A stretch of 64,000 nt of DNA from an uncultured Gemmatimonadota bacterium (lineage in GTDB: Bacteria > JAAXHH01). How positions within the stretch are numbered: the stretch's first letter is position 1; each line of letters starts with the position of its first letter. Shown piece by piece: positions 5,898-33,033 of the stretch. The position numbers and the translations under genes were made by a program. Below the pieces are notes generated by a model. The model did not search any database. It was given only the letters and a program-made list of their open reading frames with translations, and was not told where the DNA came from. The stretch spans positions 576,001 through 640,000 of the forward strand of contig OX638340.1 of assembly GCA_951812955.1 (NCBI GenBank), given 5' to 3'.

Positions 5898-5916
5898 TGC
5901 TTGCAGTCTGGAGATG

Positions 5917-7063: not shown

Positions 7064-7087
7064 GTCAGCCCCTGGATATCGAGTGAA

Positions 7088-7606
7088 TCACGGAACTCGG
7101 CCCGATTGGGACTGCGGACCGGGTTCCAGCGTCTGGTTCTCGCCGCTTTCTTTCTTCATGCTCAGCATGGTGTCGAGCTGTTCCTGGTGAGATTCGAGCA
7201 GAATCCGGAATTTAACCTCGTAGTCTTTTCTCAAGGAAGTGAGCTCACGGAGTTCCCGTTTGATTTCGGTGACCTGGTTATTCGCGTCGGATATCCAGCG
7301 GTCCGCCTGGTTTTCCGCTTCCTTCAACACGTTCTCCGCTTCCTTCATGGCATTGGCTTTCATGTCGTGAATGACCCGCTGCGCCGACACCAGGGCGTCT
7401 TCGAGCAGTTTCCGCCGCCTGCCGACATCGGATAGCTCGTGATCCATCTTCGCCACCTGGCCGCGCAACGTTTCATTGTCCCTGACCAGTATTTCGAGCG
7501 CGGCGGCGGTAGAATTCAGAAACGCCTCCACTTCATCCATATCATATCCACTGACCCAACGTGTCTTGAATTTCTGACTCCGTATTTCATCGGGATTGAT
7601 GTCCAT
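7088..7606 (-). CDS. divIVA: cell-division/polar-scaffold protein DivIVA
   Basis: N-terminus 'DINPDEIRSQKFKTRWVSGYDMDEVEAFL' is the DivIVA signature, followed by coiled coil. Confidence 0.85.
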   Translation of the reverse strand: MDINPDEIRSQKFKTRWVSGYDMDEVEAFLNSTAAALEILVRDNETLRGQVAKMDHELSDVGRRRKLLEDALVSAQRVIHDMKANAMKEAENVLKEAENQADRWISDANNQVTEIKRELRELTSLRKDYEVKFRILLESHQEQLDTMLSMKKESGENQTLEPGPQSQSGRVP

Positions 7607-7637
7607 GTATCACCTCTATTTCTAGTTCGCGCTCCGG

Positions 7638-8462
7638 TCAGATCCGAAGCAACAGGGGCAGGAGACTTACCTGGATAAACCTGAGGATCAGGATAGCGAT
7701 CAACGGCGAAAAATCGATGCCGTACGTCGTCGGAAGTAACCTGCGGATCGGTTCCAAAATGGGATCGCTGTACAGGATGAGCATTTGAAAGAGCGCGTTG
7801 CTCGTGTCCGGGTTGAAGAACGAGAGCACCGCGCGTACGAGTATCACGATAAAGAGCACGTCGAATATGAAGTCGACCAGGTAGACGATGCTTCCGAGGA
7901 TCATCCCCGCCGCCGAACCGGCCGCCTGTGCCGCCAGCACGCCGACCTGGTAAAACACCATACCGTGCAGAACACCCAGGAGCACGATGCCCAGCAGTGC
8001 GGAAACGTCCGCGCGACCGATACGGTAGCCGGTGAAGCGGCGGATTGGAGCAAGGAAGAAGTGGGCGATGTTGTGCATCATGTGCCCGGACTGGCTGAAT
8101 GCGAACGGAGACTCGATCGAGATGAAAAAGGCGCCTAGGAACAGGATGGCCAGCACCCGCACTGAAAAATCGAATACATCCAGCAATCCGGAAGTCATGG
8201 AGACGGTGAAGGGGACGCCCATGACGACTGTCGTGAGCATTCCCTGCACTACGACGAGCAAAAGAATGGCAAAGACGGGCGACCAGTCGAAACGGGGCTC
8301 GCCGCGCATGATGACCTGGCGAATCGGCCGCAGCACGGGTTCGGTCGCGGTGTACAGGCCCCTTTGGATCGGATTCTCGCTAAAGGGACTCGCAGCAGGC
8401 ATGAACAGGCGAATTCCGAAGGCCAGCATGTATATGTTGATGATTAACTCGATCAGTCCCAT
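7638..8462 (-). CDS. YggT/Ycf19-family membrane protein (duplicated YggT domain)
   Basis: Two internally repeated YggT-like hydrophobic modules ('LIELIINIYMLAFGIRL...' and '...VDFIFDVLFIVILVRAVLSF'). Internal ATG start chosen at the first YggT module. Lies downstream of yggS as in ylmE-ylmG clusters. Confidence 0.7.
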   Translation of the reverse strand: MGLIELIINIYMLAFGIRLFMPAASPFSENPIQRGLYTATEPVLRPIRQVIMRGEPRFDWSPVFAILLLVVVQGMLTTVVMGVPFTVSMTSGLLDVFDFSVRVLAILFLGAFFISIESPFAFSQSGHMMHNIAHFFLAPIRRFTGYRIGRADVSALLGIVLLGVLHGMVFYQVGVLAAQAAGSAAGMILGSIVYLVDFIFDVLFIVILVRAVLSFFNPDTSNALFQMLILYSDPILEPIRRLLPTTYGIDFSPLIAILILRFIQVSLLPLLLRI

Positions 8463-8496
8463 GTAGAGTCCCGTTCCATGCCAGGTCGGTGTCGCG

Positions 8497-9246
8497 TCAC
8501 GCCGGGCGTGCGCCGAAAATCGCCGTACCAACCCGGATCATATCCGCGCCTTCTTCAATGGCTACTTCAAAGTCATGGGACATGCCCATGGAGAGAACGT
8601 CCATGCCGATGCCCGTGACACCGGCGGAAGCAATGCGATCTCGCGTATCCCGGAGCATCCGGAAAGCAGGCCGGACATCTTCAGGATCGGGCGAGAAGGC
8701 GGGGATCGTCATCAGTCCCCTGACGGACAGCCCGGAGAGGACGGACAACTGCTCCGCGAGTTCCAGCGCGCGGTCAGGCTCCACACCTGCCTTCGTCTCC
8801 TCCGACGATGTGTTGACCTGGATCAGCACGGGCATGATCCTTCCCGCGGTCTGGAGACGCCGATCCAGTTCCTGTCCGAGCGAAAGGCGGTCGACTGAGT
8901 GGATCATGTCGAAAATCCGCACGGCAGACTTCGCCTTGTTACGCTGCAGCGGACCGATCATGTGCCACGTGGCGCCGTCTTCCGGACGGGCCTTCTCAAG
9001 CGCTTCCTGCACCCTGTTTTCACCGAAATCCGTGACACCGGCCCGCAAGGCTTCTTCGATCATCGCAAGGGGCTTGGTCTTCGATACCGCAATGAGGTGA
9101 ATGGACGAGGCCTCGCGGCCGGTTCGTTCGGCAGCCTTGGATATACGGTCGTACACCCGGACCAGATTGTCTTTGATCGTGGACAAAGGATCAGCCTCAT
9201 CGAAAAACAAGTCTGATAATATATGCGACCCGGGACTACGTCGCAA
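8497..9246 (-). CDS. yggS: YggS-family pyridoxal-phosphate homeostasis protein (alanine-racemase-N fold)
   Basis: 'LIAVSKTKP' PLP-lysine motif, plus 'GENRVQE', 'HMIGPLQRNKA' and 'SMGMSHDFEVAIEEG'. The exact start is uncertain; a TTG near 'LSTIKDNL' is possible. Confidence 0.8.
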   Translation of the reverse strand: MRRSPGSHILSDLFFDEADPLSTIKDNLVRVYDRISKAAERTGREASSIHLIAVSKTKPLAMIEEALRAGVTDFGENRVQEALEKARPEDGATWHMIGPLQRNKAKSAVRIFDMIHSVDRLSLGQELDRRLQTAGRIMPVLIQVNTSSEETKAGVEPDRALELAEQLSVLSGLSVRGLMTIPAFSPDPEDVRPAFRMLRDTRDRIASAGVTGIGMDVLSMGMSHDFEVAIEEGADMIRVGTAIFGARPA

Positions 9247-9396
9247 TAGAAATCAGAAATTGTCGAGATTGCATCGGTGAACGAGATTCTGCCCGGCTTC
9301 TCCGACTGTAACAAAAGTGCAAACGGCTGCGATGCCGCGTTTCCGGACCGGCCGGCCGGCATGAGTGACGCAGCCTGAAATCGGAAAGGGAACATC

Positions 9397-10938
9397 TTGC
9401 TATCGCGAGTCTCAAGTGGCGCCGTGCAGGGCATCGACGCTATTCACGTAGCCGTGGAAACCCATATCACCAACGGCCTCCCTCATTTTTCCACCGTTGG
9501 GCTTCCGGACAGCGCCGTACGGGAGAGCAAGGATCGCGTGATGGCCGCAATCAAGCAGTCCGGTTTTAACTATCCGTACCGCCGGATCACCATCAACCTT
9601 GCGCCCGCGGACGTGCGGAAGGCGGGTACCTCCTTCGATCTCCCCATCGCCGTCGGCATTCTCGCCGCGTCGGCGCAGTTGCCGGCCCAGTCCCTTGAAG
9701 ATACGGTTCTGCTGGGCGAACTGTCATTGGACGGCGCCCTCCGGCCGGTCAGAGGCGCGCTATCCGTCGCGCTTGCGGCGCGGCGTCTGGGCGCGCGCAG
9801 GGTGATTGTTCCGCGCGAGAATGCCGATGAGGCCGCAATGGCCCGCGACATCGACGTTTACGGCGTACCGACTCTGGAATCCGCGGCCCGCTTCCTCCAG
9901 GGACGAACCGGTTTTGTCCGGTCCCGCCGCGATGCCTGTCAACTCCTCTCGTCCAACGGGGAGTATCCCTTCGATTTCGCCGAAGTAAAAGGACAGGATC
10001 ACGCGAAACGCGCCATAGAAGTAGCTGCCGCGGGATCACACAATCTGCTGCTCATCGGCCCACCGGGTTCGGGCAAAACGATGCTTGCCCGCTGCTTGCC
10101 GTCCATACTTCCCGATTTCACCCTGTCGGAGGCGTTGGAGACTACCCGGATTCATAGTGTGGCGGGCAAGATACCTGCGTTCTCTTCCCTGGTGACCTCA
10201 CGGCCCTTCCGTGCGCCTCACCACACCATTACCGAGGCGGGACTGATCGGCGGCGGGAGGAATCCTAAGCCCGGAGAGGTGTCCCTGGCTCACAACGGCG
10301 TGCTTTTTCTGGATGAACTGCCCGAATTCCGAAAGCACGTGCTGGAAATGCTCCGGCAACCCCTCGAAGACGGAAAAGTCAATCTTTCACGCGCTTCGAG
10401 GTCGCTGGCCTATCCAGCTCGATTTACCCTGGTCGCCGCCATGAATCCCTGTCCATGCGGATACTTCGGCGATCCGGCCCACGAATGCATCTGCCCGCCC
10501 AACCGGATTCATCAATACATGTCCCGGATTTCCGGACCGCTGCTCGACCGGATCGATTTGCACGTCGAGGTACCCCCGGTACCGTACGGGCTCCTCAGCG
10601 GCCGTTCCGGCGGCGAACCGTCCGATCGAATCAGAGATCGGGTCAACCGCTCCAGGGAACGCCAGTTGCCGCGTTTTTCCAACCATCCCGGCTCCTTTGG
10701 CAACGCGCACATGACGCCCCGCGATCTTCACCGCTATTGCAGTATGGACGGAAGCGCCCACGACCTGTTGCGGAGCGCCATCGCCCGTCTGGGTCTCTCC
10801 GCCAGGGCCTACGATCGTATTCTGAAAGTCGCCAGAACCATCGGCGACCTGGCCGGTGCGGAAGAGATCAACGCGGAACACGTGGGCGAAGCTATACAGT
10901 ACCGGTCACTCGACCGCGGCAAATGGATGGACTTCTGA
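9397..10938 (+). CDS. comM: YifB/ComM-family Mg-chelatase-like AAA+ ATPase
   Basis: N-terminal Lon-like domain ('GIDAIHVAVETHITNGLPHFSTVGLPD'). Walker A 'LLLIGPPGSGKTMLA' and 'LFLDELPEF'. TTG start with an AAGGGA RBS. Confidence 0.85.
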   Translation: MLSRVSSGAVQGIDAIHVAVETHITNGLPHFSTVGLPDSAVRESKDRVMAAIKQSGFNYPYRRITINLAPADVRKAGTSFDLPIAVGILAASAQLPAQSLEDTVLLGELSLDGALRPVRGALSVALAARRLGARRVIVPRENADEAAMARDIDVYGVPTLESAARFLQGRTGFVRSRRDACQLLSSNGEYPFDFAEVKGQDHAKRAIEVAAAGSHNLLLIGPPGSGKTMLARCLPSILPDFTLSEALETTRIHSVAGKIPAFSSLVTSRPFRAPHHTITEAGLIGGGRNPKPGEVSLAHNGVLFLDELPEFRKHVLEMLRQPLEDGKVNLSRASRSLAYPARFTLVAAMNPCPCGYFGDPAHECICPPNRIHQYMSRISGPLLDRIDLHVEVPPVPYGLLSGRSGGEPSDRIRDRVNRSRERQLPRFSNHPGSFGNAHMTPRDLHRYCSMDGSAHDLLRSAIARLGLSARAYDRILKVARTIGDLAGAEEINAEHVGEAIQYRSLDRGKWMDF

Positions 10939-20208: not shown

Positions 20209-21276
20209 TTACATTCTATCGTCTCTGACCTGAATGGACTCGCCGTTCACCAGGTTACGGTGGCCGACGACAATCAGGGTGTCACCGGCGGCCAGTCCAT
20301 CCGTTACAAGCACCTGGTCTCCCGAAATCGACCCCAGCGAAATCGGGACGGAACGTGCGACGCTTCCGTCCGCGACGAACACAATCCGGCCCTGATCGGT
20401 ATCGATCACCGCGTCCTGTGGAATGACGATCGCTTCCGGGATATAATCTTTGACGACGCGAATCGTTACGGCCATTTCAGGTTTCAGCAGGTGATCGGGG
20501 TTATCGAGCGTGATCTCAACCGGTACGGTGCGGCTGTCCGGATCCAGGGTCGTTCCGACGTAGGTTACGTCCGCCTCCACGCTGACGTCCGGATAGGCCG
20601 GAAACGCCAGTGCGGCGCGCGTGCCCACCGAGACGTGCTTCAGGTGGCGTTCAGGGACACCGGCCACGACTTTGACCCGGTCGATATCGACCACCTCCAC
20701 GAACTCCCGCCCTGGCGTGGCCAATTCACCCACCTCCATCATACGGCTGTCCACCACGCCGGAGATCGGCGACCGGATCACCGTTTTTCCCAGGTATGTC
20801 AGTGCCTGCTGGTGCCGCGCCCGGTCCATGTCGTTCCTGTACTGGGTGTCCAGGTACACGGATTCCGCAAGCGCCTTTTGTTCAAACAGTCTTTTCTGAT
20901 TGCGCAGGGCCAGGTCGCTGGCGTTAACCGCCGCTTCGGCTTCGTCCACCGCGGCTCTGAGCAACTCGTCGTCCAACCGCGCCAGTATGGTGTTCCGCGT
21001 AACCGATTCGCCTTTTTCAATCTCGATTTCCGTAATCAATCCGGTCGCTTCGATACTCACCACGACGCGCCGGGCCGGCTTGATCTCGCCCACGAGCCGG
21101 AGGTGATTGATGAATTCCCGAGGCTGGACGACCCGGGTCACCACATTCACGGCCCGCGTCTCCTTCACGGCGCCCGTATCGTTGGCGGCGCTGCCACTTT
21201 CACTGCAGCCCGCGGCCATCAGTACGCCTGCCAGGCATGCGGCCGAACCGAACCATTGCCAAACGCGGGTGATCAT
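20209..21276 (-). CDS. RND efflux periplasmic adaptor (membrane fusion protein)
   Basis: Lipoprotein-like N-terminus 'LMAAGCSE'. Coiled-coil hairpin, lipoyl and beta-barrel domains ('VSIEATGLITEIEIEKGESV'). Confidence 0.85.
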   Translation of the reverse strand: MITRVWQWFGSAACLAGVLMAAGCSESGSAANDTGAVKETRAVNVVTRVVQPREFINHLRLVGEIKPARRVVVSIEATGLITEIEIEKGESVTRNTILARLDDELLRAAVDEAEAAVNASDLALRNQKRLFEQKALAESVYLDTQYRNDMDRARHQQALTYLGKTVIRSPISGVVDSRMMEVGELATPGREFVEVVDIDRVKVVAGVPERHLKHVSVGTRAALAFPAYPDVSVEADVTYVGTTLDPDSRTVPVEITLDNPDHLLKPEMAVTIRVVKDYIPEAIVIPQDAVIDTDQGRIVFVADGSVARSVPISLGSISGDQVLVTDGLAAGDTLIVVGHRNLVNGESIQVRDDRM

Positions 21277-21334
21277 CGATGACTGCTCCTCGTGTTCCTG
21301 CCATGTACCGTGTCAGCCCGTCAATACCGACTTG

Positions 21335-21348
21335 TGGGGCCGGCCCCA
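21335..21348. promoter_or_regulatory. perfect 14-bp palindrome TGGGGCCGGCCCCA in the RND-operon/GT9 divergent intergenic region
   Basis: Read directly from the sequence. Lies about 60 bp upstream of the MFP start (21276). Candidate operator. Confidence 0.4.
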
Positions 21349-21481
21349 ATAACGTAATATCAGGTAATCCTGTCAAGTACATCTATACAAGCGGGGAAGG
21401 CCCTTCATTCAATAAAACCGCGGTCCGTGCCGAAGCAGATTCTATCGGCCGGCGGCACGACGGGCCCGGCCTCGAATAGCC

Positions 21482-22699
21482 ATGTGGAAACAGTTCAACA
21501 ACCTAGCCTACCGGATCTTCTTCGCATACCGAAACCGGAAATCGCGCAGCAGGAGCCGGGGATGGGCGGTCCGGGCTCCACTCGCGGCCGAGGCGGGACC
21601 CAGGCCCGTGCTGTATGTGGCGTGGGGCCGCGTCGGGGACGTGGTTCTGAGCACGGGGCATCTGAAATGGTTGCGCCGGTGGTTTCACCCCAGTCCGGTC
21701 TGGTTCCTCGGAAGGTCGAGCGTGAAACCGATCGTCGAACCCCATGTCGACGTCTTCCTGCCGTTCCCGGTACCGTTTGAGCGGAATACCGGCTTCGGCA
21801 ACGTCCCCGCCGCGTCGCTCGGCCGCATGGCGAACCGATCGTTCCAATACCTCATTACGGACATCCACACGTTTTACGGCGGCCTGTTCACTCTGGATGG
21901 CCTGCTGGCCTCCGTGCGGGCGGAACGGAAGTTCGTCTACGAAGGATACCACCTGGGAAAAGACCTGGCTCCGGAGCGGCCTTATCCGGACGATTACGAG
22001 ATCGTGCCGAAGTACGGGGACCGGGATGACCGGGATACGGATTTCGCTGGTGGCCATATGTTGACACACAACGGCCATTACATCCGCCACGTGTTGGACC
22101 GCTGCGGTGTCGAGCCGGATGACGGGGCGCAGTGGCGTCCGGACCTTGGCCATGTCGGAGAGGGGACGGAGGAATGCCGCCGGTTGGGGATCGAACCGGG
22201 TGAATTCGTGGCCTGGCAGCCCACCAGCGCAAACAGGAGGAAAGACTACCCGTTGTCATGCTGGGCGGAGACGATCCGCGCATTTCCGGATCAGCAGTTT
22301 GTCGCGCTGGTCGAGCCGGGCGCCGCCGCCGGTCTGGACCAGGCCGCCTTGCCGGGCGTGCGCGTCGTCGAATCGGGTTTAGCCGTGGCGATGAAGCTGA
22401 TCAGGGAGGCGCGCCTGTTTGTCGGACTGGATTCCGGGCTGAGCCATATCTCGACGGTGCTGGGAACACCGACGGTGTGTGTCTGTCCGGACAGCCATCT
22501 CGGATACTTCTTTCCCTATCCCGACGGCTACGGCTTCACGAACCTGCGCACCGTCGCCCATCCGGACTACCTGTCGTGCCGGGGATGTTTCATGACTTGC
22601 GAACACGAACCCCTCATGTCGACGATCAGCCGGGGCGCGCTTTGCCTGCGCACATTGCCTCCCCGCCAGGTCATCGATGCGATAAAAGCCGCATTATAG
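21482..22699 (+). CDS. glycosyltransferase family 9 (heptosyltransferase-like)
   Basis: 'VLYVAWGRVGDVVLSTGHLKWL' (N-terminal GT9 box) and 'LFVGLDSGLSHISTVLGTPTVCV' (C-terminal GT9 box). Confidence 0.7.
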   Translation: MWKQFNNLAYRIFFAYRNRKSRSRSRGWAVRAPLAAEAGPRPVLYVAWGRVGDVVLSTGHLKWLRRWFHPSPVWFLGRSSVKPIVEPHVDVFLPFPVPFERNTGFGNVPAASLGRMANRSFQYLITDIHTFYGGLFTLDGLLASVRAERKFVYEGYHLGKDLAPERPYPDDYEIVPKYGDRDDRDTDFAGGHMLTHNGHYIRHVLDRCGVEPDDGAQWRPDLGHVGEGTEECRRLGIEPGEFVAWQPTSANRRKDYPLSCWAETIRAFPDQQFVALVEPGAAAGLDQAALPGVRVVESGLAVAMKLIREARLFVGLDSGLSHISTVLGTPTVCVCPDSHLGYFFPYPDGYGFTNLRTVAHPDYLSCRGCFMTCEHEPLMSTISRGALCLRTLPPRQVIDAIKAAL

Positions 22700-22767
22700 T
22701 TCGAATGTCGCCTCCCGCGTCCGCCTTTCCTGTTGTTCGCCTCCCGCGTCCGCCTTACCCGTCCGGC

Positions 22768-24711
22768 TCACGCGTCCGCGTCCGTTCTCAGATCGACCCG
22801 GACCGGGTGGGCCAGCGCGATGAGATCTTCGATATCGAACGAGGCGAGCAGGCCGAAACAGAAGAGCGGCGACAGCGTTTCATACCGTCCCGGTTCATCG
22901 ATCAGCCGTTGAAGGCTTGCAAGTCCCCGGCGCAGCTCGATTTCTTCCACCGCGTGACTGCTCAGGGACGATGCCATGAGCGCGACTACAGAAGAAGCGG
23001 GACCCACGGCCGTCAAGCCGGACAGGGCTGCTGCCTCGTGATCCAAGACCGCCGCGAGCTGCGCGACCTGCAGCCCCAGCATCCTTTCGCCGCCCGATGA
23101 GAGCATCATCGTCCACTGATGCGGCGCCTTGCCCAGTTCACACGCGCCCTGCATGACCACTTCCACCACCATGGCCGCGTTCCCTTCCCGCAGGGCTTCC
23201 GCTACCGGGGCCGACGCGCCCCGGCTTCCGGCGTCCGTCAGGATCAGTCGCTTTTTCGCGTATTCCCGCGTCGATGGAACGGTGGTACGGACAGGAAGCA
23301 CCCAGCCGTCCCGCAAATGGCAATGGCTGTAAGTCGTTTGGCGGCCGTCGCCGGATTCCGATGCCTGCTTGATCATTTCTTCAACCGGGAAGGGCCGGTA
23401 ACGTAGAATGGATCTGAGCCGGTCCCGTCCCGCCTTCTGCCATCGGCGCATCGCGGCCGGTTCCCCTGGTGGCTTTACGCGTTTCAGCCCAAGCGCCTCG
23501 GACCGGGCCAGGGTAACGAAATCGGCGTTTCCAATCGGCGTTCCTACGGTCAGTTCTTCTTCGGAACGCACCTCGTCGGCCGAGGGGATCTCCTCGTCGC
23601 GGCCGCACGCGCCCGGCAGAAAATGCCGGTTCAGGAACCGGTAGAAACTCTCCCTGTGCTCCCGTTCGTAGTTGTGGGTGCCCGGGTCGATGTTGTTGTG
23701 GAATTCAAAGGCATCCTGCCTTCCGTACGACGCGTAAAGCGGCCGGACCGGTTCGTAGACGGATGGTCTGGCCCTGGCGGTCTGGAAGCAGCAGTCGTCA
23801 TATTCGTTATACAGCAGCAGGGCCGGGCGCGGCGCAAGCATGGCCGTGAGTACAGGATAATCGGCCGTGGAGGCGAGATCCGCGGCATTCTGTTCGATGT
23901 CGCCGCGGTCGGCCGGGTGTTTGATCCGGCTGTCCAGGCCGATGTAACCGGCATTGGGCGCGGCGAGACGCACCCGCGTGTCCAGGGCGGCCAGGATAAT
24001 CGTCTGCCATCCGCCGCCGGACAGTCCGGTCACGGCTATACGCTCCGGATCGACATGTTCCTGATTCAGCAGCACGTCCAGCGCTCGGCTCATGGCGAGG
24101 TAGAAAACGGCGATACCGGCAACTCCGCACAGGTCCAGGTAAGCTGCGTTGTTGTGCTGGTAGCCCGGTCCCTGCAACTCGCCGAACCCCAGCCACTCGG
24201 GGTTCAGCGCTACCATGCCCCGCTTGGCCAGGTTGATGCATCGTTCCTGCTTGTAGTCCACCGCTTTGCCCGGGGGACCGACATGCCCGTTCAGGTTCAG
24301 CACCCCCGGCGTTGTATCTCCTAAATCATCCGGTTCATAAAGCAGCGCCGGGATGACGAGACCGGGCTGACCGGGCCAACCGGGCCGACCAGTACTGGCA
24401 GGACTACCGGGCAACGCGTGGTAGGTCAGCTTGCGGATCCGGTATCCTTTGCCGGTCTCGATCACGTCTTTCCACTCGACACGGAGCGCTCCCTCTCGCC
24501 ATTCGTCGGGAACGCCCTTGAAAATAACCTCCTCCAGCATGGTCCGACGCATCTTCGCGGCTTCTGCGTCCCAGGTATTCGCATCTGGAAGCCTGAAACC
24601 GGGAATACGGCCCAGCATATAAGTTCGGAGGGTCTCCATGGCATCGGGTTCACTGCGTGACGGCGATGGCCGCATTACCGCCCTGTCGTCATCCCGATCC
24701 GTTTCATTCAT
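22768..24711 (-). CDS. alpha/beta-hydrolase-fold protein (AXE1/dienelactone-hydrolase-like) with about 300-aa C-terminal extension
   Basis: Nucleophile elbow 'VTGLSGGGW' in the N-terminal ~350-aa hydrolase core. The start ATG overlaps the stop of the transglutaminase gene (ATGAATGA). Confidence 0.55.
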   Translation of the reverse strand: MNETDRDDDRAVMRPSPSRSEPDAMETLRTYMLGRIPGFRLPDANTWDAEAAKMRRTMLEEVIFKGVPDEWREGALRVEWKDVIETGKGYRIRKLTYHALPGSPASTGRPGWPGQPGLVIPALLYEPDDLGDTTPGVLNLNGHVGPPGKAVDYKQERCINLAKRGMVALNPEWLGFGELQGPGYQHNNAAYLDLCGVAGIAVFYLAMSRALDVLLNQEHVDPERIAVTGLSGGGWQTIILAALDTRVRLAAPNAGYIGLDSRIKHPADRGDIEQNAADLASTADYPVLTAMLAPRPALLLYNEYDDCCFQTARARPSVYEPVRPLYASYGRQDAFEFHNNIDPGTHNYEREHRESFYRFLNRHFLPGACGRDEEIPSADEVRSEEELTVGTPIGNADFVTLARSEALGLKRVKPPGEPAAMRRWQKAGRDRLRSILRYRPFPVEEMIKQASESGDGRQTTYSHCHLRDGWVLPVRTTVPSTREYAKKRLILTDAGSRGASAPVAEALREGNAAMVVEVVMQGACELGKAPHQWTMMLSSGGERMLGLQVAQLAAVLDHEAAALSGLTAVGPASSVVALMASSLSSHAVEEIELRRGLASLQRLIDEPGRYETLSPLFCFGLLASFDIEDLIALAHPVRVDLRTDADA

Positions 24712-25621
24712 CGGCGCGTCTCCTCTCGACCGGATTGCGCCGTATCGGGTTATTTTCCGAAAGAGGCCGCATGGTCACAGCTACTTCGATCTCGATCTCA
24801 CCACCGCCCTGCAACACGCCGTGCGTGGGAGAAACGTCCCTGTAATCTCTACCCACGGCCACGCGCACATACCGCTCATCGACCAGGGTTGCATTCGTGG
24901 GATCGAATGCGGTCCAGCCGAGTTCGGGCAACTGGCACTCCACCCAGGCGTGCGTGGTCGTCATTCCATCTCCGCTGACTTCCGCTGCAACGTCATGGAG
25001 ATAGCCGGATACGTACCGGGCGGGTATGCCCCAGGTACGCGCGATGGCGATCATGACGTGGGCGTAATCCTGGCAGACGCCGCGTCCGCTATCCAGTATA
25101 TGTTCAATTGTCGAGGAAAACGTAGTGGTTCCAGGATCATAGTGGAAGCGATCGTACAGCGTGGCCGAAAGCCGCCCCAACGCGTTCAGCGGGTCGTCCG
25201 TGGGCTTGATCCCGTTCTCTCGAACGAAGCGTTCAAGGACTGATGAAGGCCTGGCCAGGGCGCTATGGTCCAGAAAAACCCGATGATGAAACGAGTTGCG
25301 CCAACCCCTGATGGTCGCCCATGCCTCGTCTTCTATACGCTCCGAAGATGATTCGCAAGGAGTCACATCGACCGTGGATCGTGCCGTGATTACCAGTGAC
25401 CGGTGTTCGCGGTACAGGTGAAACTGGTGCCTGGTATTTCCGAAACTGTCCTCGACTTGAAAGAGCGATCCGGTCGGCTCCGTATCGATCCGGAAACCAG
25501 ATACGCGCTGTCTGCGGTCTTCCGTCGGTTTCAAAGCCAGCGACATCGCGCAGTTGCGCACGGGAATGCCGTAGCGGTATTTCGTGACGTGTTCGAGTTC
25601 GTAACGTACGTTTCCGACCAT
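24704..25621 (-). CDS. transglutaminase-like protein (bacterial transglutaminase N-domain plus Cys-protease-like core)
   Basis: N-terminus 'VRYELEHVTKYRYGIPV' matches the Bact_transglu_N domain. Core 'GRGVCQDYAHVMIAIARTWGIPARYVSGY...HAWVECQLPELGWTAFDPTN' carries the Cys-His-Asp triad. Confidence 0.85.
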   Translation of the reverse strand: MVGNVRYELEHVTKYRYGIPVRNCAMSLALKPTEDRRQRVSGFRIDTEPTGSLFQVEDSFGNTRHQFHLYREHRSLVITARSTVDVTPCESSSERIEDEAWATIRGWRNSFHHRVFLDHSALARPSSVLERFVRENGIKPTDDPLNALGRLSATLYDRFHYDPGTTTFSSTIEHILDSGRGVCQDYAHVMIAIARTWGIPARYVSGYLHDVAAEVSGDGMTTTHAWVECQLPELGWTAFDPTNATLVDERYVRVAVGRDYRDVSPTHGVLQGGGEIEIEVAVTMRPLSENNPIRRNPVERRRADE

Positions 25622-25625
25622 GGCG

Positions 25626-26594
25626 TCAGTGAGCCGGTAGAATCTCCAGCGGGTAGTCTATGTATGCGTCTATGACAAGGTGATGGAGTTTTTTGCTGTC
25701 GGCATGTACCCGGTCGAGTACCGGTTGCCATACCGCTACGTCGTTCCGGCGTGCCGTTACGCATTTGCACAGCGTGTCGCCCAGTCCAAGCGCTTCCCGG
25801 CTCGAATTCGGCGCCGGACCGTGGCCTATGGCGCGCAAAACTTCGGCGGCCGAATCGACGGAACGGCGGATCGAAGCAGGAAGCAGGCCATCTGTTACGA
25901 GCAGATCCAGCACCTGGCCGGGCTGGACCACCACGCTGTAGGTATGCACGTAGGCGTCGAATGCGTGAAACGCGTGCAGCAGGTTCGCCCAGTCCGCGTC
26001 GAAGGATTCGTCCTGCCGGCCGTGATCGGCGATCTGCGCGAGCATGACCGCGGCGGAGAGCTGCACCCTTTCGATATATCTACCCAGCTGAATGAAATGC
26101 CAGCCTTCGTCGCGGTACATGGTGGCGTCGGTCACGCCGGCAAACGTGTTGATTTCCACTGAAGTGCCGGCGTAAAACGACTCGGGGGTCGTCTTCCAGA
26201 TTTCCTGGATGTTCAGCTTCTGCAGGTGCAGATAGGCCGTGTTTAATGAAAGCCACATCTCCGCGCTGATGTAGTTGCGGACCTGCCTGGCGTTTTCCCT
26301 TGCGTACACGAAACAATTCCAGATGGAATCCGGATTCGTGGGCTCGAAGGTAAGATGGTCGGCAAGGGTGTACGAATCAGCGAGTGTGTAGTCATCACTG
26401 CGGAAGGCTTCAAGTGTGCCCGCGGGCGGCGCCTGGTTCATGCTGCGGTAAACCCGGTTCCAGCCGAAGTGGATTTCCCTCAGCGGACGATCCACGAGCG
26501 TTTCCACCTGCAGTTGCATCAAACGACACAGGTGCGCCGCACGTTCCAGGTATCTCCCCATCCAATAAAGACCTTGAGCGCTTCTGGACAGCAT
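25626..26594 (-). CDS. alpha-E domain protein (DUF403)
   Basis: 'MLSRSAQGLYWMGRYLERAAH' is the hallmark N-terminus of the alpha-E family. All-helical composition. Confidence 0.8.
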   Translation of the reverse strand: MLSRSAQGLYWMGRYLERAAHLCRLMQLQVETLVDRPLREIHFGWNRVYRSMNQAPPAGTLEAFRSDDYTLADSYTLADHLTFEPTNPDSIWNCFVYARENARQVRNYISAEMWLSLNTAYLHLQKLNIQEIWKTTPESFYAGTSVEINTFAGVTDATMYRDEGWHFIQLGRYIERVQLSAAVMLAQIADHGRQDESFDADWANLLHAFHAFDAYVHTYSVVVQPGQVLDLLVTDGLLPASIRRSVDSAAEVLRAIGHGPAPNSSREALGLGDTLCKCVTARRNDVAVWQPVLDRVHADSKKLHHLVIDAYIDYPLEILPAH

Positions 26595-28028
26595 TTAATC
26601 TCCCAGGACCCAGATGTCTTTGCCTCCCCCGCCCTGGCTGGAGTTCACGACGAGACTTCCCTCACGCAGCGCCACACGGCAGAATGCCCCCGGGACGATG
26701 CGCGTCTCGCGTCCGTGCAGGACAAAAGGGCGCAGGTCCACGTGTCGCGCCGCGGCGCGGCCCTCGATCATGCAGGGAGCGCGTGAAAGGTCGAGCACGG
26801 GTTGCGCAATGAAATCGGCCGGATTTTCCAGGATCTCGCGGATGTAGGCATCCCGCACCGCAGAGGTCGATCGGGGACCGACCAGCATGCCATAGCCCCC
26901 GGACTCGCCCACCCTTTTAACGATGAGATCCTCCAGATTGTCCAGCGTGTATTCCAGGTCTTCCTCCCTCCGGCAGATGTAGGTTTTTACGTTCATAAGC
27001 AGCGGTTCTTCGCCCAGATAGTAACGTATCATGTCCGGAACGTAGGCGTACACGCTCTTGTCGTCTGCAACCCCCGTGCCCGGTGCATTCGCCAGGGTAA
27101 CGTTTCCGGCCCGATAGACTCCCATCAGCCCGGGAAGTCCCAGCAGAGAGTCCGGACGGAAAACCAAAGGGTCAAGGAAGTCGTCGTCCACCCGCCGGTA
27201 TATGACGTCCACCTTGCGCAGGCCCGACGTGGTGCGCATGTACACGTAACCCCCGTTGACAAGCAGGTCCCGGCCTTCTACCAGGGTCGCACCGATCTCT
27301 TCGGCCAGGTAAATATGTTCGTAGAACGCCGAATTGTATACGCCAGGCGTCAGCAAAACCACGCACGGATCGGGATCTTCCCGGGGTGCGAGTTCCTTCA
27401 GGATTTCACGAAGCAGGCGGCCGTAGTGCTCGACCTCCTGTACCCGGCAACTGCGATAAAGCCTTCGAAGATTGGCCTTCACCGCCTTCCGGTTGGCGAC
27501 CATGTAGGACACGCCGGAGGGCACACGGAGGTTGTCCTCGAGGACGTGGAACCCCTCGTTCGTGCGCACCAGATCCGTTCCACAGACGGCGACATACGTG
27601 CCGTGGGGGACGTTTATGCCCCGCATTTCCACGCGATACTGGGGACAACCGTGCACCATGTCGACGGGAATGACCCCGTCCTCGACGATACGGGCTGATC
27701 CGTAGATGTCGGCCAGGAAAAGGTTCAGGGCTTTCAGGCGCTGGGTAAGTCCGGCTTCGAGTTGCCGCCATTCCCCGGCTGTGATAAGACGGGGTAGACA
27801 GTCGACCGGCATAATTCGTTCATTGGCCTCATCGCCGCCGTAGACTGTAAACGTGATGCCTTCGCTGGAAAAGGAATGGGTGACCCTTTCCTGCATGCGA
27901 ACGAGTTCTTCAACAGGAAGCCTGAGCAGGGAATCGTAGAGCGTACGGCAGTGATCACGGGGGTTGCCGTCGGGCTGGAACATCTCGTCGTAGAAAGCGC
28001 TGTCGATTTCGTAATCTTCAAAGTCCAT
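26595..28028 (-). CDS. circularly permuted type-2 ATP-grasp protein
   Basis: 477 aa with the N-terminus and architecture typical of cpATP-grasp-2 (DUF404/DUF407) proteins. Its stop abuts the alpha-E start (26595/26594). Confidence 0.8.
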   Translation of the reverse strand: MDFEDYEIDSAFYDEMFQPDGNPRDHCRTLYDSLLRLPVEELVRMQERVTHSFSSEGITFTVYGGDEANERIMPVDCLPRLITAGEWRQLEAGLTQRLKALNLFLADIYGSARIVEDGVIPVDMVHGCPQYRVEMRGINVPHGTYVAVCGTDLVRTNEGFHVLEDNLRVPSGVSYMVANRKAVKANLRRLYRSCRVQEVEHYGRLLREILKELAPREDPDPCVVLLTPGVYNSAFYEHIYLAEEIGATLVEGRDLLVNGGYVYMRTTSGLRKVDVIYRRVDDDFLDPLVFRPDSLLGLPGLMGVYRAGNVTLANAPGTGVADDKSVYAYVPDMIRYYLGEEPLLMNVKTYICRREEDLEYTLDNLEDLIVKRVGESGGYGMLVGPRSTSAVRDAYIREILENPADFIAQPVLDLSRAPCMIEGRAAARHVDLRPFVLHGRETRIVPGAFCRVALREGSLVVNSSQGGGGKDIWVLGD

Positions 28029-28257
28029 AACGAGGGTCTCCTATCTTTGGACCAGCGAGATCCTTGTCCTGGAACGGCAGGATATTTCGGGCTCAAAGGC
28101 GCCCTTCATACCTTGCTCATGCATTTATCACATCTTTCTCATGCTTTCTACTGCATAAGCATGTTATATGTGGTCATGCAATAGATCAAGCGAAGTTCTG
28201 AATCATCGCGATGCCGGCCAGACACGCAGAATTGATCCTGCACATTTGGAGAATTTC

Positions 28258-28298
28258 CAAACATTTTCAATACTGAAGTAAATTGAAACATTTTCATT
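28258..28298. promoter_or_regulatory. direct repeat 'AAACATTTTCA' (x2, 27 bp apart) in a 420-bp AT-richer divergent region
   Basis: 'ccaaacattttcaatactgaagtaaattgaaacattttcattg', between the cpATP-grasp operon start (28028) and the permease::SPFH start (28452). Confidence 0.4.
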
Positions 28299-28451
28299 GC
28301 GCTTTCCCTGTGCAGGGGTATTTTGCGTTTTAGTTCGAGTTAGCCAGCCGGTTTTCGTCACAGAATAGACAATTCAACAACCTCAAATTGCTACGCTTTA
28401 ATGTAATATGTTGATAACCGCGGGTTTATCCATCGTGCGGGAGGCGGACGA

Positions 28452-30788
28452 ATGGTAATGGAGTTTGGCAATATCCTTACCGCTTACTTCGATTTCATCT
28501 GGATGTCGTTCCTGCTTCTGGGTCCGATGTTGATGCTGGGTCTGCTGCTTTCGGGCCTGATCCACGTTTTCATCTCCCGGGAAGCGATACTCAGATGGCT
28601 TCAGGACGACAGCCTTCGCTCGGTCTCAATCAGTTCCGCCGTAGGCGTTCCGGTACCGCTCTGCAGCTGTTCCGTCGTTCCCGTAGTTGCCGAAATGCGA
28701 CGAAAGGGGGCTTCCCGCTCATCCTGCATGGCCTTCCTGATTACGGCGCCTGAAACCGGGGCCGACTCCATCCTCGTCACGAACGCTTTTTTCGGCTTCA
28801 TCGCCGCCGTTGTGCGACCTGTCATCAGTTTTATCACAGCCGTCGTGGCGGGTATTTTCTGCATCGGCCTGATCCGGGACGATAGTGGCGAGGCCAAGCC
28901 GGAGGAGGAAGACCACGGACACGCCCACCACGACCATGACCACGGTCACGACCATGGACATGACCACGATCATGACCACGATCACTCGGTCCACGATCCG
29001 CTGCTGTCGGACAAGGATGACTGCTATGTAAGCCCCTCCGCCATGAAGATCCTCATGACGAAGTGGATCAAGGGGTTGACTACCGTGGCGTCCACCTGGA
29101 GGTTCGGATCGTGGATCAAACCGGAATTCTACCGGGAGATCATCGGAGAGCAACCGGCGAAATCCGCGAATCGGACCGAACTGGATGAGGTGGAAGAAAA
29201 ATACCCCGGGCTCGATTTCAAGAAGATCGTCAAGCATATCTTCCACTACGGCTTTGTCGAGATCGCCGATGATATACTCTTCGCGCTGCTCGTCGGTATC
29301 GCGCTGGGCGGCGTGCTGTTCCTGGTCATACCGGCCGACCTGATGTCCAACGAATACGCACGCTGGCTTTCCTACCCCGTAATGATCATCGTCGGCGTGC
29401 CCCTTTACATCTGCGCCTCCGCCAGCACGCCGATTGCCGCCGCGCTGGTCGCCCGGGGCGTCAGTCCAGGGGCCGCCCTGATATTCCTGATGACAGGCCC
29501 CGCGACCAACACAAGCACCATCGCCATCATCATGAGTCAGTTCGGCGCGCGTTTCGCGGCCGTATACGTCACGTCAGTCATCGCGGTCACCGCGGTGATC
29601 GGCATAGCCATCGATTTCATACTGGTGGCCACCGGGTTTGCCATTTCCGTCAACCTGTTGCCTTCCGATTCCCCCACGCTTCAAATTCTGCAGTGGGGCG
29701 GCGCGCTCGGGCTGATCGCGCTTATCGTCTGGAGGTACCGCGCCGGCGCCATGCGCAGCGGTTACGAAGACCTCATGCTCAACATCCGACCCTTCTCCCG
29801 GCCATGGCGGAACACGTGGAAGCGGCTGACCCGTGACCGGTCGTTCCGGGGTACGATTTCACCCACCACACCCATGGGCATGATGCTGTGGGGCTTGCTG
29901 CTGGTCCTCTTTCTTGGCAGCGGGTTCACGGCCGTGCCGCCGGGTCACGTCGGATACGGCCGGTTGTTCGGCGAGGTATACTGGAAAGACCTTCAGCCCG
30001 GGCTTCATTACCTGGCGCCGCGCCCCCTCGTCCAGGTCGACAAGTGGCCAGTCAGGGAAGTAAAATCAATTATGTCCGAGACACCGTACGAGTACGTGTC
30101 GGGCGACCTGAACATGCTCACGCTCACCCTGGACGTCCAGTACCGGGTAAACGACCCGTACACGTATCACTACCGTACGGTCGATCCGGAAGAGATCATC
30201 GAAGACGCGGTGCGCGAGCACGTTCGTACTTTTGTCAACGCACGTGACCTGGATCGGCTCCTCACTGCATACCGGGCGGAACTGGAAGATGAGCTGACGA
30301 ATCTCTTCGTGACGGATGCCCGGATGCACGGCGACAAGTCGGTGCTTGGCACCGTCGACCTCGTGAAGGTCAGCCTGCTGAACGTCACCCCGGCGGCGGA
30401 AGCCCTGAGTTCCTTCCGGGAGATTTCAAGCGCCCAGGAAGACAGGGAAAGAATCATCGTCAACGCGCAACGGTTCATGGTGTCCCTGGTGCCGCGCGCT
30501 CACGGCAATGCCGAGTATGAGAAAGAACAGGCCGATGGAGAGGCATTTCGCAAGGTGGCGACCTCCGCGGCGGAAGCGGATGCCATTATGGTCATTTCTT
30601 CTGCCATGCAGACGGCGCCGGAAGTCCTGCGGAACATGCTGTGGCGGGAAAAGTTGGAATCCGCTCTCGCCGGCAATCCCAAGATTATCGTGCCCAACAG
30701 ACAGAGTTTCAACAAGGTCGCGATCTGGAAAAAGAGGCCGGCGGAAGCCGCCGCCCCATCCGCCAAGACAGGAGGTAAAGGCAAATGA
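28452..30788 (+). CDS. fusion protein: DUF318/ArsP-like, His-rich metal permease (N, ~460 aa) :: HflK-like SPFH/band-7 domain (C, ~320 aa)
   Basis: GGGAGG RBS. N-terminus has at least 8 TM helices, 'VPVPLCSCSVVPV' (like the ArsP 'TPFCSCS' motif) and a cytoplasmic 'HGHAHHDHDHGHDHGHDHDHDHDH' tract. From about residue 455 there is one TM ('MGMMLWGLLLVLFLG') followed by the band-7 core 'VPPGHVGYGRLFGEVY...'. Confidence 0.7.
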   Translation: MVMEFGNILTAYFDFIWMSFLLLGPMLMLGLLLSGLIHVFISREAILRWLQDDSLRSVSISSAVGVPVPLCSCSVVPVVAEMRRKGASRSSCMAFLITAPETGADSILVTNAFFGFIAAVVRPVISFITAVVAGIFCIGLIRDDSGEAKPEEEDHGHAHHDHDHGHDHGHDHDHDHDHSVHDPLLSDKDDCYVSPSAMKILMTKWIKGLTTVASTWRFGSWIKPEFYREIIGEQPAKSANRTELDEVEEKYPGLDFKKIVKHIFHYGFVEIADDILFALLVGIALGGVLFLVIPADLMSNEYARWLSYPVMIIVGVPLYICASASTPIAAALVARGVSPGAALIFLMTGPATNTSTIAIIMSQFGARFAAVYVTSVIAVTAVIGIAIDFILVATGFAISVNLLPSDSPTLQILQWGGALGLIALIVWRYRAGAMRSGYEDLMLNIRPFSRPWRNTWKRLTRDRSFRGTISPTTPMGMMLWGLLLVLFLGSGFTAVPPGHVGYGRLFGEVYWKDLQPGLHYLAPRPLVQVDKWPVREVKSIMSETPYEYVSGDLNMLTLTLDVQYRVNDPYTYHYRTVDPEEIIEDAVREHVRTFVNARDLDRLLTAYRAELEDELTNLFVTDARMHGDKSVLGTVDLVKVSLLNVTPAAEALSSFREISSAQEDRERIIVNAQRFMVSLVPRAHGNAEYEKEQADGEAFRKVATSAAEADAIMVISSAMQTAPEVLRNMLWREKLESALAGNPKIIVPNRQSFNKVAIWKKRPAEAAAPSAKTGGKGK
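28915..28990 (+). repeat. low-complexity CAC/GAC codon repeat encoding the His/Asp/Gly tract of the permease
   Basis: Visible run 'cacgacggacacgcccaccacgaccatgaccacggtcacgaccatggacatgaccacgatcatgaccacgatcac' within the CDS. Confidence 0.8.
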
Positions 30789-31678
30789 CCGGTAAGGGAC
30801 GTGGCATCCGAACGGCCATCGTCGCGCTCGTGCTGGCGGCGATCGTTTACGACTGTTTCTATGTGATCAACGAAACCCAGCAGGGGGTCCTGACGAACTT
30901 CGGCCGGATTTCGCCTCCGGTGAAGCAGCCCGGACTACATGTCAAGTGGCCCCGACCGATTTCAAGAGTCTACAAGGTGGACCGGAGGCTGCAGACACTC
31001 ACCGACGTGTCCCATGAGTTGATTACCGAAGATCAGAAGAACATCCTGATCAGCGGCTACCTGCTCTGGCGCATCGTAGACCCAATCCTGTATGTCGAGG
31101 CGATACGCACGGGCGCCAATGCAGCCGAACGTCTGCGGGATCTCTACCTTTCGAGCAGTGGGATCGTGATCAGTAACAAGGCCCGTGATGCATTCATCAG
31201 CCTTGGGCTGGAACACGAAGACCTGCACGAAGCGGCCCGTGACATCCTGAGCAGTGTCGCCCCGATTGCCAGTACCAACTATGGTATCGAGGTGCTGAAA
31301 GCCGGTATCATCGAATACACGCTGCCCATGGAAAACCGCCCGGCCGTGATCCAGCGTATGATATCGGAGCGCGCGCGCATCGCGGCCCGGTACCGCAGCG
31401 AGGGCGAGGAGATGGCCATCCGCATCGAAGCGCTGGCAATAAACGAACATGAGAAGCTTATGGCGGAGGCGCACGCGGAAGCCACGGCCATACTCGGTGA
31501 GGCCGAAGCGGAAGCGATGGCTTTGCTGGGCAGGGCTTACCGGAGGGACCCGGCGTTCTACCGGTTCATCCGGGCCCTTGACAGTTATGATCTGATTATC
31601 GACAAAAACACGACCCTTATGTTGCCGGCCGACAACGAACTGTTCAGATACCTGGACAGCAGAACGGTTCCCAGGTAG
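30785..31678 (+). CDS. HflC-like SPFH-domain protein
   Basis: ATGA start/stop overlap with the preceding gene and an AGGAGG RBS. N-terminal TM, then 'QQGVLTNFGRISPPVKQPGLHVKWP' band-7 start. Confidence 0.8.
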   Translation: MTGKGRGIRTAIVALVLAAIVYDCFYVINETQQGVLTNFGRISPPVKQPGLHVKWPRPISRVYKVDRRLQTLTDVSHELITEDQKNILISGYLLWRIVDPILYVEAIRTGANAAERLRDLYLSSSGIVISNKARDAFISLGLEHEDLHEAARDILSSVAPIASTNYGIEVLKAGIIEYTLPMENRPAVIQRMISERARIAARYRSEGEEMAIRIEALAINEHEKLMAEAHAEATAILGEAEAEAMALLGRAYRRDPAFYRFIRALDSYDLIIDKNTTLMLPADNELFRYLDSRTVPR

Positions 31679-31695: not shown

Positions 31696-33033
31696 ATGAC
31701 GAACGAAAAGCGACCTTTACCTTACAGCACGCGCGTAATCTATGCCATGTTCGATTGGGCGCGCACCTACGGCTGGAACCGGCTGTTCTGGAGCGTGATC
31801 GCCTTTTCCATCGTGGCCGTGCTGGCCAGCGGGTTTTATATCATAAAGAAAGAAGAGCAGGGCGTCCTCGTTCGTTTCGGCAAGGTGGTGGACGAGAACC
31901 TTGGTCCGGGCATTCATTACTGCGTTCCGTTCATATACGAAACCCACATACGCAAGGTGAAGCGCATCGTCCGTGTCTCTATCGTCAGCGAAGGGACGGC
32001 TGGGGATACGCACGTCACGCTGCTGTCCGGCGACACGAACCTTGTGGAGGTGGATGTGGCCGTGCAGTACAAGATAGACAACCTGCGAAACTATCTCTTT
32101 GCGGTTTCGGACCCGACGATGTTGATGACCATGATCGTACGGGAAGAAATGGTCAATATCGTGGGGCAGAATTTCATCGACCTTATACTCACGTCTAACC
32201 GGAACATCATCGAACGTCATCTCCACGACTTCCTCGCCGGACGTCTCGAAACGATTGACATCGGTATCGAACTCGTCGACCTGAACATCCTGGACATCCG
32301 CCCCATCGAAGAGACCGTAGAGGCCTTCCGGGACGTCAACGATGCCATTTCCGAGCGCATGCAGTCCATCAGCAACGCCAACCTGCGCAGGGAGAAACTG
32401 GTCGCCCGCACGAAGGGCCAGACGGAAGCGATTGTCATGGATGCGAAAGCCACGGCGAGAGAACGCGTTCTGCAGGCCGAAAGCAGTGCCGGCGCATTCT
32501 CGAAACTGCTAGACGAATACGCCAAGCAACCGGCCCAGGTGGGCATTACCCGTTACTGGCAGCGGATGCGAACGATTTTCGCCGAAGCGAACCTGGCCGC
32601 GGTTAATCCCGGCAACGACGCGAATATCGAAGTCAACCTGGTAGACAGCGGCACGGCGTTGACGCCGGTGGAAATGGCTTTCGATTCGCCGGAAGCGTTG
32701 TCGGCCGCCGGCCCCGATTCGCTGGACAGGCCGGTTTATTCGACCTTGCCCCCGGATATTCATCGATATGAGAACATCGACAGGGACGGTTTCCTGATCG
32801 AAGGCAGATTCCATAGCAGGAACACCGAACGGGATCACCTTCCCGTCGCCAGGCCTCGATCGCTCATTTTCGACACGCCTTCCATCTTCAGCCATGGACA
32901 CGTGGCGACAAGCAGCACGGACACGGCGAATCAATCAGGCGAGAAGGCCATGGTCGATACCATGCACGACGAAGAAAGCGAAGAAGAATCTAAAGAGGGC
33001 ACGGAAGGGAGCCAAAGTGATCCGAAGCAATAA
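31696..33033 (+). CDS. HflK-like SPFH-domain protein
   Basis: N-terminal TM then 'EEQGVLVRFGKVVDENLGPGIHYCVPFI' band-7 core. Long coiled coil and an acidic C-terminal tail ('DEESEEESKEGTEGSQSD'). Confidence 0.8.
   Translation: MTNEKRPLPYSTRVIYAMFDWARTYGWNRLFWSVIAFSIVAVLASGFYIIKKEEQGVLVRFGKVVDENLGPGIHYCVPFIYETHIRKVKRIVRVSIVSEGTAGDTHVTLLSGDTNLVEVDVAVQYKIDNLRNYLFAVSDPTMLMTMIVREEMVNIVGQNFIDLILTSNRNIIERHLHDFLAGRLETIDIGIELVDLNILDIRPIEETVEAFRDVNDAISERMQSISNANLRREKLVARTKGQTEAIVMDAKATARERVLQAESSAGAFSKLLDEYAKQPAQVGITRYWQRMRTIFAEANLAAVNPGNDANIEVNLVDSGTALTPVEMAFDSPEALSAAGPDSLDRPVYSTLPPDIHRYENIDRDGFLIEGRFHSRNTERDHLPVARPRSLIFDTPSIFSHGHVATSSTDTANQSGEKAMVDTMHDEESEEESKEGTEGSQSDPKQ

Follow-up and report, generated by a model that had tools for sequence, protein, structure and literature searches.

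In a 64,000-nucleotide (nt) stretch of DNA from an uncultured Gemmatimonadota bacterium (contig OX638340.1, positions 576,001 to 640,000; the whole stretch is referred to here as the window), four co-oriented and tightly packed open reading frames (ORFs) were found on the minus strand. The first three, here called the triad, encode a circularly permuted ATP-grasp protein, an Alpha-E domain protein and a transglutaminase-like cysteine peptidase (TGase), and the fourth encodes an α/β hydrolase. A first-pass annotation, made from the sequence letters, had read the triad as an operon of the 'amidoligase' type and had proposed the hydrolase, translationally coupled to it, as a candidate for a further component or substrate-processing enzyme of that system. 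We find the locus to be best explained, with a probability of roughly 75%, by operon capture: a canonical triad came to be placed beside, and co-transcribed with, an unrelated cytoplasmic esterase of the type of CAZy carbohydrate esterase family 19 (CE19) in a single sponge-associated lineage of Gemmatimonadota type. The hydrolase is thus very probably not part of the amidoligase system, and its co-transcription and coupling with the triad would be an accident of gene order, not evidence of joint function.

Synteny was examined from the side of the hydrolase by scanning one genome per species. Relatives of the hydrolase were detected in 583 species, and the best 80 loci (designated by L numbers) were taken with flanks of up to 10 kb and searched by tblastn with the window proteins; the surveys of synteny reached no farther than ±10 kb, and less where a locus was short. 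By this approach, the triad was found to adjoin the hydrolase only in L001, L003-L007 and L009 among these best 80 of 583. In the triad-adjacent loci hydrolase identity was at least 69%, and the gene order Band7-ArsP-triad-hydrolase-GT9-HlyD-AcrB was fully collinear over about 15 kb. Three further metagenomic relatives, at 74-81% identity, share this gene order, and their TGase/hydrolase junction is an ATGA overlap. The triad was absent from all 71 of the other hydrolase loci (38-54% identity), where the best match to a triad protein had E=0.46 and where the available sequence extends upstream by 3.3 kb or more in about 56 loci. These 71 distant loci span Poribacteria, Planctomycetota, Latescibacterota, Armatimonadota, Hydrogenedentota, Acidobacteriota and others. 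Their flanking genes are not conserved (233 of 346 were singletons), and the recurrent neighbours are GFO/IDH/MocA oxidoreductases, sulfatases and SDRs.

The complementary survey covered 85 triad loci, five of them annotated plasmid loci and 80 metagenomic loci with an ATP-grasp protein 50-60% identical to that of the window. The five plasmid loci, from four phyla, carry the triad alone or the triad together with a 'proteasome-type protease' (Anbu). A homologue of the window hydrolase was detected in 0 of the 85 triad loci at E≤1e-3. Where enough sequence was available, the gene following the TGase was on the opposite strand about half of the time. Co-oriented genes in this position differed from locus to locus, encoding an MBL-fold protein, an enoyl-CoA hydratase, a GFO oxidoreductase, Uma2, MBOAT, an outer-membrane barrel or GltX. 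Hydrolase and triad were therefore essentially never syntenic outside of one narrow collinear clade, and the role proposed for the hydrolase within the system was not upheld from either side (0/71 and 0/85).

Several of the triad loci had features of their own. On Klebsiella pneumoniae plasmid pKp_SB612_1 (L082), a co-oriented 304-aa α/β hydrolase gene (4883-5797) is located 183 nt upstream of a complete ATP-grasp/Alpha-E/TGase/Anbu operon; this protein was considered as a relative of the window hydrolase and rejected (BLASTP E=0.35). Four metagenomic loci (L100, L146, L156 and L165) carry two divergent paralogous ATP-grasp/Alpha-E/TGase sets within a few kb, with ATP-grasp proteins that are 28-38% versus 50-58% identical to that of the window. 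In L156, L157 and L165, the TGase match falls within a very long ORF of about 1100 aa.

Two sister members of the clade have lost the triad, one by clean deletion and the other by pseudogenisation. All three triad genes are absent from L008, in which the hydrolase is intact (637 aa) and directly follows the divergent ArsP gene. In L008, the approximately 60 nt preceding the hydrolase start have their homologues upstream of the ATP-grasp gene of L002 and L009, which indicates that the triad was deleted and that the hydrolase became joined to the former 5' region of the triad. In L002, the ATP-grasp gene is split over three frames with a deletion of about 48 residues, the Alpha-E gene is in three pieces and the TGase is without its first 44 residues, while the hydrolase, GT9, HlyD and AcrB genes are all full length. 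The ratio of nonsynonymous to synonymous substitution (dN/dS) of the hydrolase, a pairwise average, was 0.195 for L002 versus L008 and 0.19-0.32 elsewhere in the clade; in the genomes without an intact triad, the hydrolase is under purifying selection. By neighbour-joining, L002 and L008 were placed as sisters (bootstrap 92) nested among triad-bearing genomes (bootstrap 82). Basal to the clade (bootstrap 98) is L166, with a hydrolase of 62% identity and an ArsP-hydrolase-GT9-MFP-AcrB-OEP backbone that has no triad. Remnants of the triad were looked for in L166, L168, L169 and L028, and none were detected. Thus, at this locus the hydrolase is older than the triad or has at least survived it, and the triad is the variable element.

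Gene decay in L002 is regional. At about 5200-10000 of this locus (OZ252103.1, a complete 3.7-Mb chromosome of a metagenome-assembled genome), the Band7 gene is missing, the ArsP/Band7 gene is truncated and the three triad genes are pseudogenised, with the RND pump genes intact. Such decay could be a sign that the genome of a symbiont is still being reduced.

We also examined the relatives nearest to the clade. In the nearest outgroups (53-55% identity), the hydrolase directly follows genes for a SASA-type esterase and a PhyH dioxygenase, and these neighbourhoods show a catabolic, carbohydrate-type theme. In L168 (5679-9860) and L169 (4813-9947), the hydrolase ends a co-oriented run of SASA (sialate-O-acetylesterase-like), one or two PhyH and hydrolase genes, with sulfatase and GFO oxidoreductase genes nearby; two PhyH genes are located about 5 kb upstream in L166. 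The SASA-PhyH-hydrolase run is a possible catabolic cluster and as such a hint at the real substrate.

The family of the hydrolase was assigned by profile and structure comparison. Pfam matches to this protein were weak and local, limited to the nucleophile elbow at residues ~204-257 (AXE1, 3.2e-6; GCE_fung, 4.5e-6). Full-length homologues of about 640 aa are abundant, and an alignment of 15 of these sequences revealed two conserved halves, the first of which has the invariant motifs NGHVG, GLSGGGWQT, DDCCF and PGTHNY. A profile built from the 15 homologues and compared with the PDB matched 6GOC (BT1017) at E=5.1e-15 (58 bits) over about 310 positions (53-363); its further matches were to carbohydrate esterases around the nucleophile only (~50 residues). 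Foldseek with the AlphaFold model of the hydrolase (pLDDT 77, pTM 0.78) likewise returned 6GOC first (E=2.1e-13), followed by BF1801, BVU_4111 and esterases of CE15 and CE7. The GLSGGG nucleophile noted in the first-pass annotation is present at residues 229-234 and includes Ser231 (codon 24019-24021), which together with Asp305 of DDCCF, His346 of PGTHNY and a putative oxyanion-hole His143 of NGHVG is invariant in the 15-sequence alignment. The profile alignment pairs these residues with Ser282, Asp352, His388 and the NGH histidine of BT1017, respectively. BT1017 is a pectin methylesterase with a Ser282/Asp352/His388 triad and an oxyanion-hole histidine, residues that were shown by mutagenesis (PMC7939467), and it is the sole functionally characterised member of CAZy CE19. 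Based on sequence profile and predicted structure, the hydrolase is assigned to the BT1017-like (CE19) family of serine carbohydrate esterases.

The two enzymes share the α/β-hydrolase fold, the G-x-S-x-G-G elbow, the Ser/Asp/His triad and the oxyanion histidine, at an identity of only about 20%. BT1017, the founder of CE19, has an N-terminal DUF3826 domain, is encoded in a polysaccharide-utilisation locus, acts outside of the cytoplasm and has rhamnogalacturonan II (RG-II) as its substrate; the window hydrolase, by contrast, has no signal peptide and has an additional C-terminal pseudo-hydrolase domain. This part of the protein, which the first-pass annotation had termed a large C-terminal extension, was modelled separately (residues 393-647; pLDDT 81, pTM 0.82) and by Foldseek was found to resemble CE7 acetyl-xylan esterases (E~5e-9) and BF1801/BVU_4111 (TM 0.71). 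At its elbow position (G570-P-A-S-S) no conserved serine nucleophile was detected, the residues varying across alignments. The extension is thus a degenerate second hydrolase-fold domain. This two-domain architecture is already described and not new: for TBR22_41900 (634 aa, CE19), a CE19 domain at residues 1-380 and a reduced α/β-sandwich at 380-634 were delineated in silico (10.1101/2022.12.02.518825). As compared by description, TBR22_41900 of Luteitalea sp. TBR-22 is of the same length class and architecture; it is a predicted protein that has not been reported in connection with an amidoligase operon. CE15 glucuronoyl esterases and CE7 acetyl-xylan esterases/cephalosporin-C deacetylases are the next-best structural neighbours of both domains (Foldseek E of 1e-10 to 1e-8), but their sequence matches to the hydrolase are limited to the ~50 residues near the nucleophile, and by score it is not a member of either family.

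A peptidase or isopeptidase reading of the hydrolase was considered and rejected, the weak matches of this kind being nucleophile-elbow noise. The match to the NCBIfam model for the Atxe2 lasso-peptide isopeptidase had E=0.0011 and 17.8 bits (cut-off 400), that to Peptidase_S9 (E=0.0058) was under the cut-off, and dipeptidyl peptidase IV (DPP-IV) was matched at E~0.3 by profile comparison with the PDB. Signal-peptide-like hydrophobic N-termini were detected in 38 of 49 distant family members, versus 0 of 63 members of the Gemmatimonadota-type clade, and on this analysis of N-terminal hydrophobicity the hydrolase is predicted to be cytoplasmic. The 63 include members of 51-57% identity that have no triad nearby; thus, the absence of a signal peptide predates the association with the triad.

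The triad itself is firmly identified. The ATP-grasp protein matched CP_ATPgrasp_2 (PF14403) at 1.3e-154 over the full length of the model (1-374/374) and PF04174 at 2.2e-140, the Alpha-E protein gave a full-length match to PF04168 (5.9e-63), and the TGase matched Bact_transglu_N (PF08379; 1.1e-19) and Transglut_core (PF01841; 4e-23). Its catalytic residues Cys183, His224 and Asp240 are intact and are invariant in the TGase alignment. The window ATP-grasp is 47-53% identical to proteins annotated as 'circularly permuted type 2 ATP-grasp' that are encoded on plasmids from five phyla, and 47-60% identical to operon members from Deinococcota, Pseudomonadota, Actinomycetota and soil metagenomes. 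Pfam thus backed all three triad genes strongly (and the hydrolase weakly and locally, as described above), and the recognition of these genes as the known 'amidoligase' operon type was borne out by their domains and order.

The window shares with the amidoligase/Anbu operons the same three domains in the same order, abutting genes and the conserved Cys-His-Asp of the TGase; it differs in that the window clade alone appends an unrelated esterase gene. In such operons the usual fourth gene encodes Anbu, and the function of the operon is uncharacterised (PMC6376114, PMC5666114). No homologue of Anbu, a proteasome-type N-terminal nucleophile (Ntn) hydrolase, was detected in the window at E≤1. Anbu is frequent but not obligatory as a fourth gene, and about ten of the 85 triad loci carry it. 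By its sequence, the locus thus holds a canonical, apparently functional triad of amidoligase/Anbu type, here without Anbu. A search of recent literature under the old names of domains of unknown function (DUFs) returned no functional characterisation of the triad. An amidoligase system with the ATP-grasp, Alpha-E and TGase proteins was reportedly described by Iyer et al. (2009), as cited in the two Anbu papers, and the name 'Anbu operon' is said to be that of Valas & Bourne (2008), Fuchs et al. (2017) and Piasecka et al. (2018).

The junctions between the four genes were found to be as given in the first-pass annotation, as were all ORFs and coordinates: the stop of the ATP-grasp gene and the start of the Alpha-E gene are directly adjacent (26595/26594), the Alpha-E and TGase genes are separated by a 4-nt gap (25622-25625), and the TGase stop and hydrolase start overlap in the 8-nt sequence ATGAATGA, in which the hydrolase ATG is at 24711-24709 and the TGase TGA at 24706-24704. 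In the clade, the distance from TGase stop to hydrolase start is -4 (ATGA), -8 (ATGAATGA), +1 or +2 nt. This tight junction is present in 11 of the 14 clade genomes sampled, with GAGGAG about 8 nt upstream in every such junction and with the same spacing in L001, L003-L007 and L009. The C-terminal tail of the TGase (~20-25 residues; about 283-305, window 24704-24775) is absent in other phyla and poorly conserved in the clade, and the first ~24 residues of the hydrolase are likewise variable. Such variability is as expected if the TGase frame was extended through a spacer to the next stop; the clade-specific tail appears to be translated former spacer. A scan of 21000-29000 detected no sigma-70-like promoter, which is weak evidence as Gemmatimonadota promoters may differ, and terminator-like sites in this region were at or below chance, with none between the TGase and hydrolase genes. 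Because of the conserved overlap and Shine-Dalgarno (SD) site and the fusion of the triad upstream region to the hydrolase in L008, the four genes are likely co-transcribed in the clade as a single transcript, and the hydrolase is probably translationally coupled to the TGase. The earlier view of an operon extended by a translationally coupled hydrolase is in this respect favoured by the conserved ATGA/GAGGAG arrangement in 11 genomes and by the L008 fusion.

In the sequence of events that we propose, the triad would have come to lie immediately upstream of a pre-existing esterase gene in one Gemmatimonadota-type clade, and this gene would have been captured into the transcription unit of the triad. 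The TGase frame would now run through the former spacer to a stop overlapping the esterase ATG, with the GAGGAG ribosome binding site within the TGase 3' end. After capture, upstream genes may have been lost secondarily, with the promoter kept for the captured gene. The direction of the event (triad insertion versus repeated loss) is one that we infer from the sequences. The esterase would be functionally independent of the triad, with no part in its presumed peptide ligation/cleavage chemistry. By analogy to BT1017 its substrate class is most likely a sugar-linked ester, such as a methyl or acyl ester of a uronic acid or similar, which the enzyme would de-esterify by use of Ser231, Asp305 and His346 with a His143 oxyanion hole.

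Some points weigh against operon capture without a joint function. The tight junction is kept across about 30% protein divergence, as would also be expected had the esterase acquired a role with the triad. The whole clade is without a signal peptide, so the esterase shares the cytoplasm with the triad; the triad-free relatives of 51-57% identity are, however, likewise without one. The dN/dS values, being pairwise averages, cannot date the loss of the triad and would allow for relaxed selection after a very recent loss. Finally, the homologue from which the substrate class was deduced is a single characterised enzyme of about 20% identity.

Two other explanations were weighed. In one, the cytoplasmic esterase was recruited functionally as a hydrolytic fourth component in the slot of Anbu, for instance to remove a tag or intermediate that the ATP-grasp ligase had produced with an ester or amide linkage. 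The coupling-type junction and SD site conserved in 11 genomes, the window without Anbu (the usual fourth gene elsewhere), the clade esterase without a signal peptide and the L008 hydrolase behind the upstream region of the triad, which implies shared regulation, are all consistent with such a role. It is made quite unlikely by the lack of co-occurrence elsewhere in both surveys, by the hydrolase that is intact and of unchanged dN/dS in L002 and L008, whose triad has decayed or is gone, by the triad-free backbone of the basal L166, and by a catalytic apparatus of carbohydrate esterases with negligible similarity to peptidases; moreover, most triad loci are without any fourth hydrolase, and the absence of the signal peptide is older than the association. 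The specific proposal that a CE19-type esterase was co-opted as the hydrolytic partner of the triad in place of Anbu in this sponge-associated Gemmatimonadota clade is very doubtful. If it were true, an ester or ester-like bond would be expected in the triad product, and this would be the first chemical clue to what the triad makes.

The other explanation denies operon membership: the hydrolase would be expressed from its own promoter in the TGase 3' region, and the overlap would be due to genome compaction only. A hydrolase that is a stand-alone gene in hundreds of genomes and junctions in L005 and L007 that are small gaps and not overlaps agree with this, but neither a promoter (on the weak evidence given above) nor a terminator-like site was detected that would separate the two genes, and the L008 deletion kept the region upstream of the triad, not TGase 3' sequence, before the hydrolase, which suggests that an upstream promoter drives this gene. 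We consider this explanation unlikely and favour capture of the esterase gene by the triad operon, in which the hydrolase, intact where the triad was lost and akin to carbohydrate esterases and not to peptidases, would be no component of the triad system.

Thus, annotations should not carry this hydrolase forward as belonging to the amidoligase system, nor does it provide a handle on the substrate of the triad. The triad adds one more example to a well-known orphan operon, and the hydrolase one more to an esterase family that has already been described; the clade would be a clean natural example of operon capture, with a TGase ORF extended through a spacer into the start of the next gene.

Table 1. 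Features of the four-gene locus and its borders, in window coordinates.
Feature	Position	Strand	Basis
Circularly permuted ATP-grasp protein, 477 aa, gene 1 of triad	26595-28028	-	ORF, Pfam
Alpha-E domain protein, 322 aa	25626-26594	-	ORF, Pfam
Transglutaminase-like cysteine peptidase (TGase), 305 aa, Bact_transglu_N domain	24704-25621	-	ORF, Pfam
Two-domain α/β hydrolase, BT1017-like (CAZy CE19), 647 aa	22768-24711	-	ORF, profile, Foldseek
Catalytic CE19-like domain, about residues 25-375	23587-24639	-	Alignment, profile
Second, degenerate α/β-hydrolase-fold domain, residues 393-647	22771-23535	-	Separate model, Foldseek
ATGAATGA, TGase/hydrolase stop/start overlap, 8 nt	24704-24711	-	Read directly
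GAGGAG, Shine-Dalgarno-like site inside TGase 3' end, 8 nt 5' of hydrolase ATG	24720-24725	-	
Divergent intergenic region between triad and ArsP/Band7 gene; presumed operon promoter region	28029-28451	.	
Convergent GT9-family glycosyltransferase, 405 aa; neighbour of hydrolase, unit membership not claimed	21482-22699	+	

The glycosyltransferase that had been noted to converge on the operon was confirmed by a match to Glyco_transf_9 (PF01075) at 7.2e-10. A GT9 gene adjoins the hydrolase in L001-L007, L009, L166 and L170-L172. In L008 (11894-12400) the convergent GT9 is degraded, with just two matching fragments of 84 and 69 aa; thus, the hydrolase is not strictly tied to GT9 either. Between the hydrolase and GT9 stops, an exact 20-nt direct repeat, AAGGCGGACGCGGGAGGCGA, is present as two copies 29 nt apart (window 22708-22756, minus strand), with no other copy in the window (chance expectation 0.01). 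The repeat was considered as a terminator hairpin and rejected, as its folding was no better than that of shuffled sequence (z=0.05).

On the other side of the divergent intergenic region, the window encodes a 778-aa fusion of an ArsP_1-type permease and an SPFH/Band7 domain (28452-30788, plus strand), followed by an overlapping 297-aa Band7 gene (30785-31678, plus strand) and a 445-aa ORF (31696-33033, plus strand). The ArsP-Band7 fusion is kept throughout the clade; at this position the basal L166 has a permease (461 aa) without the Band7 part, and the homologous gene of L171 and L172 carries a Band7 domain.

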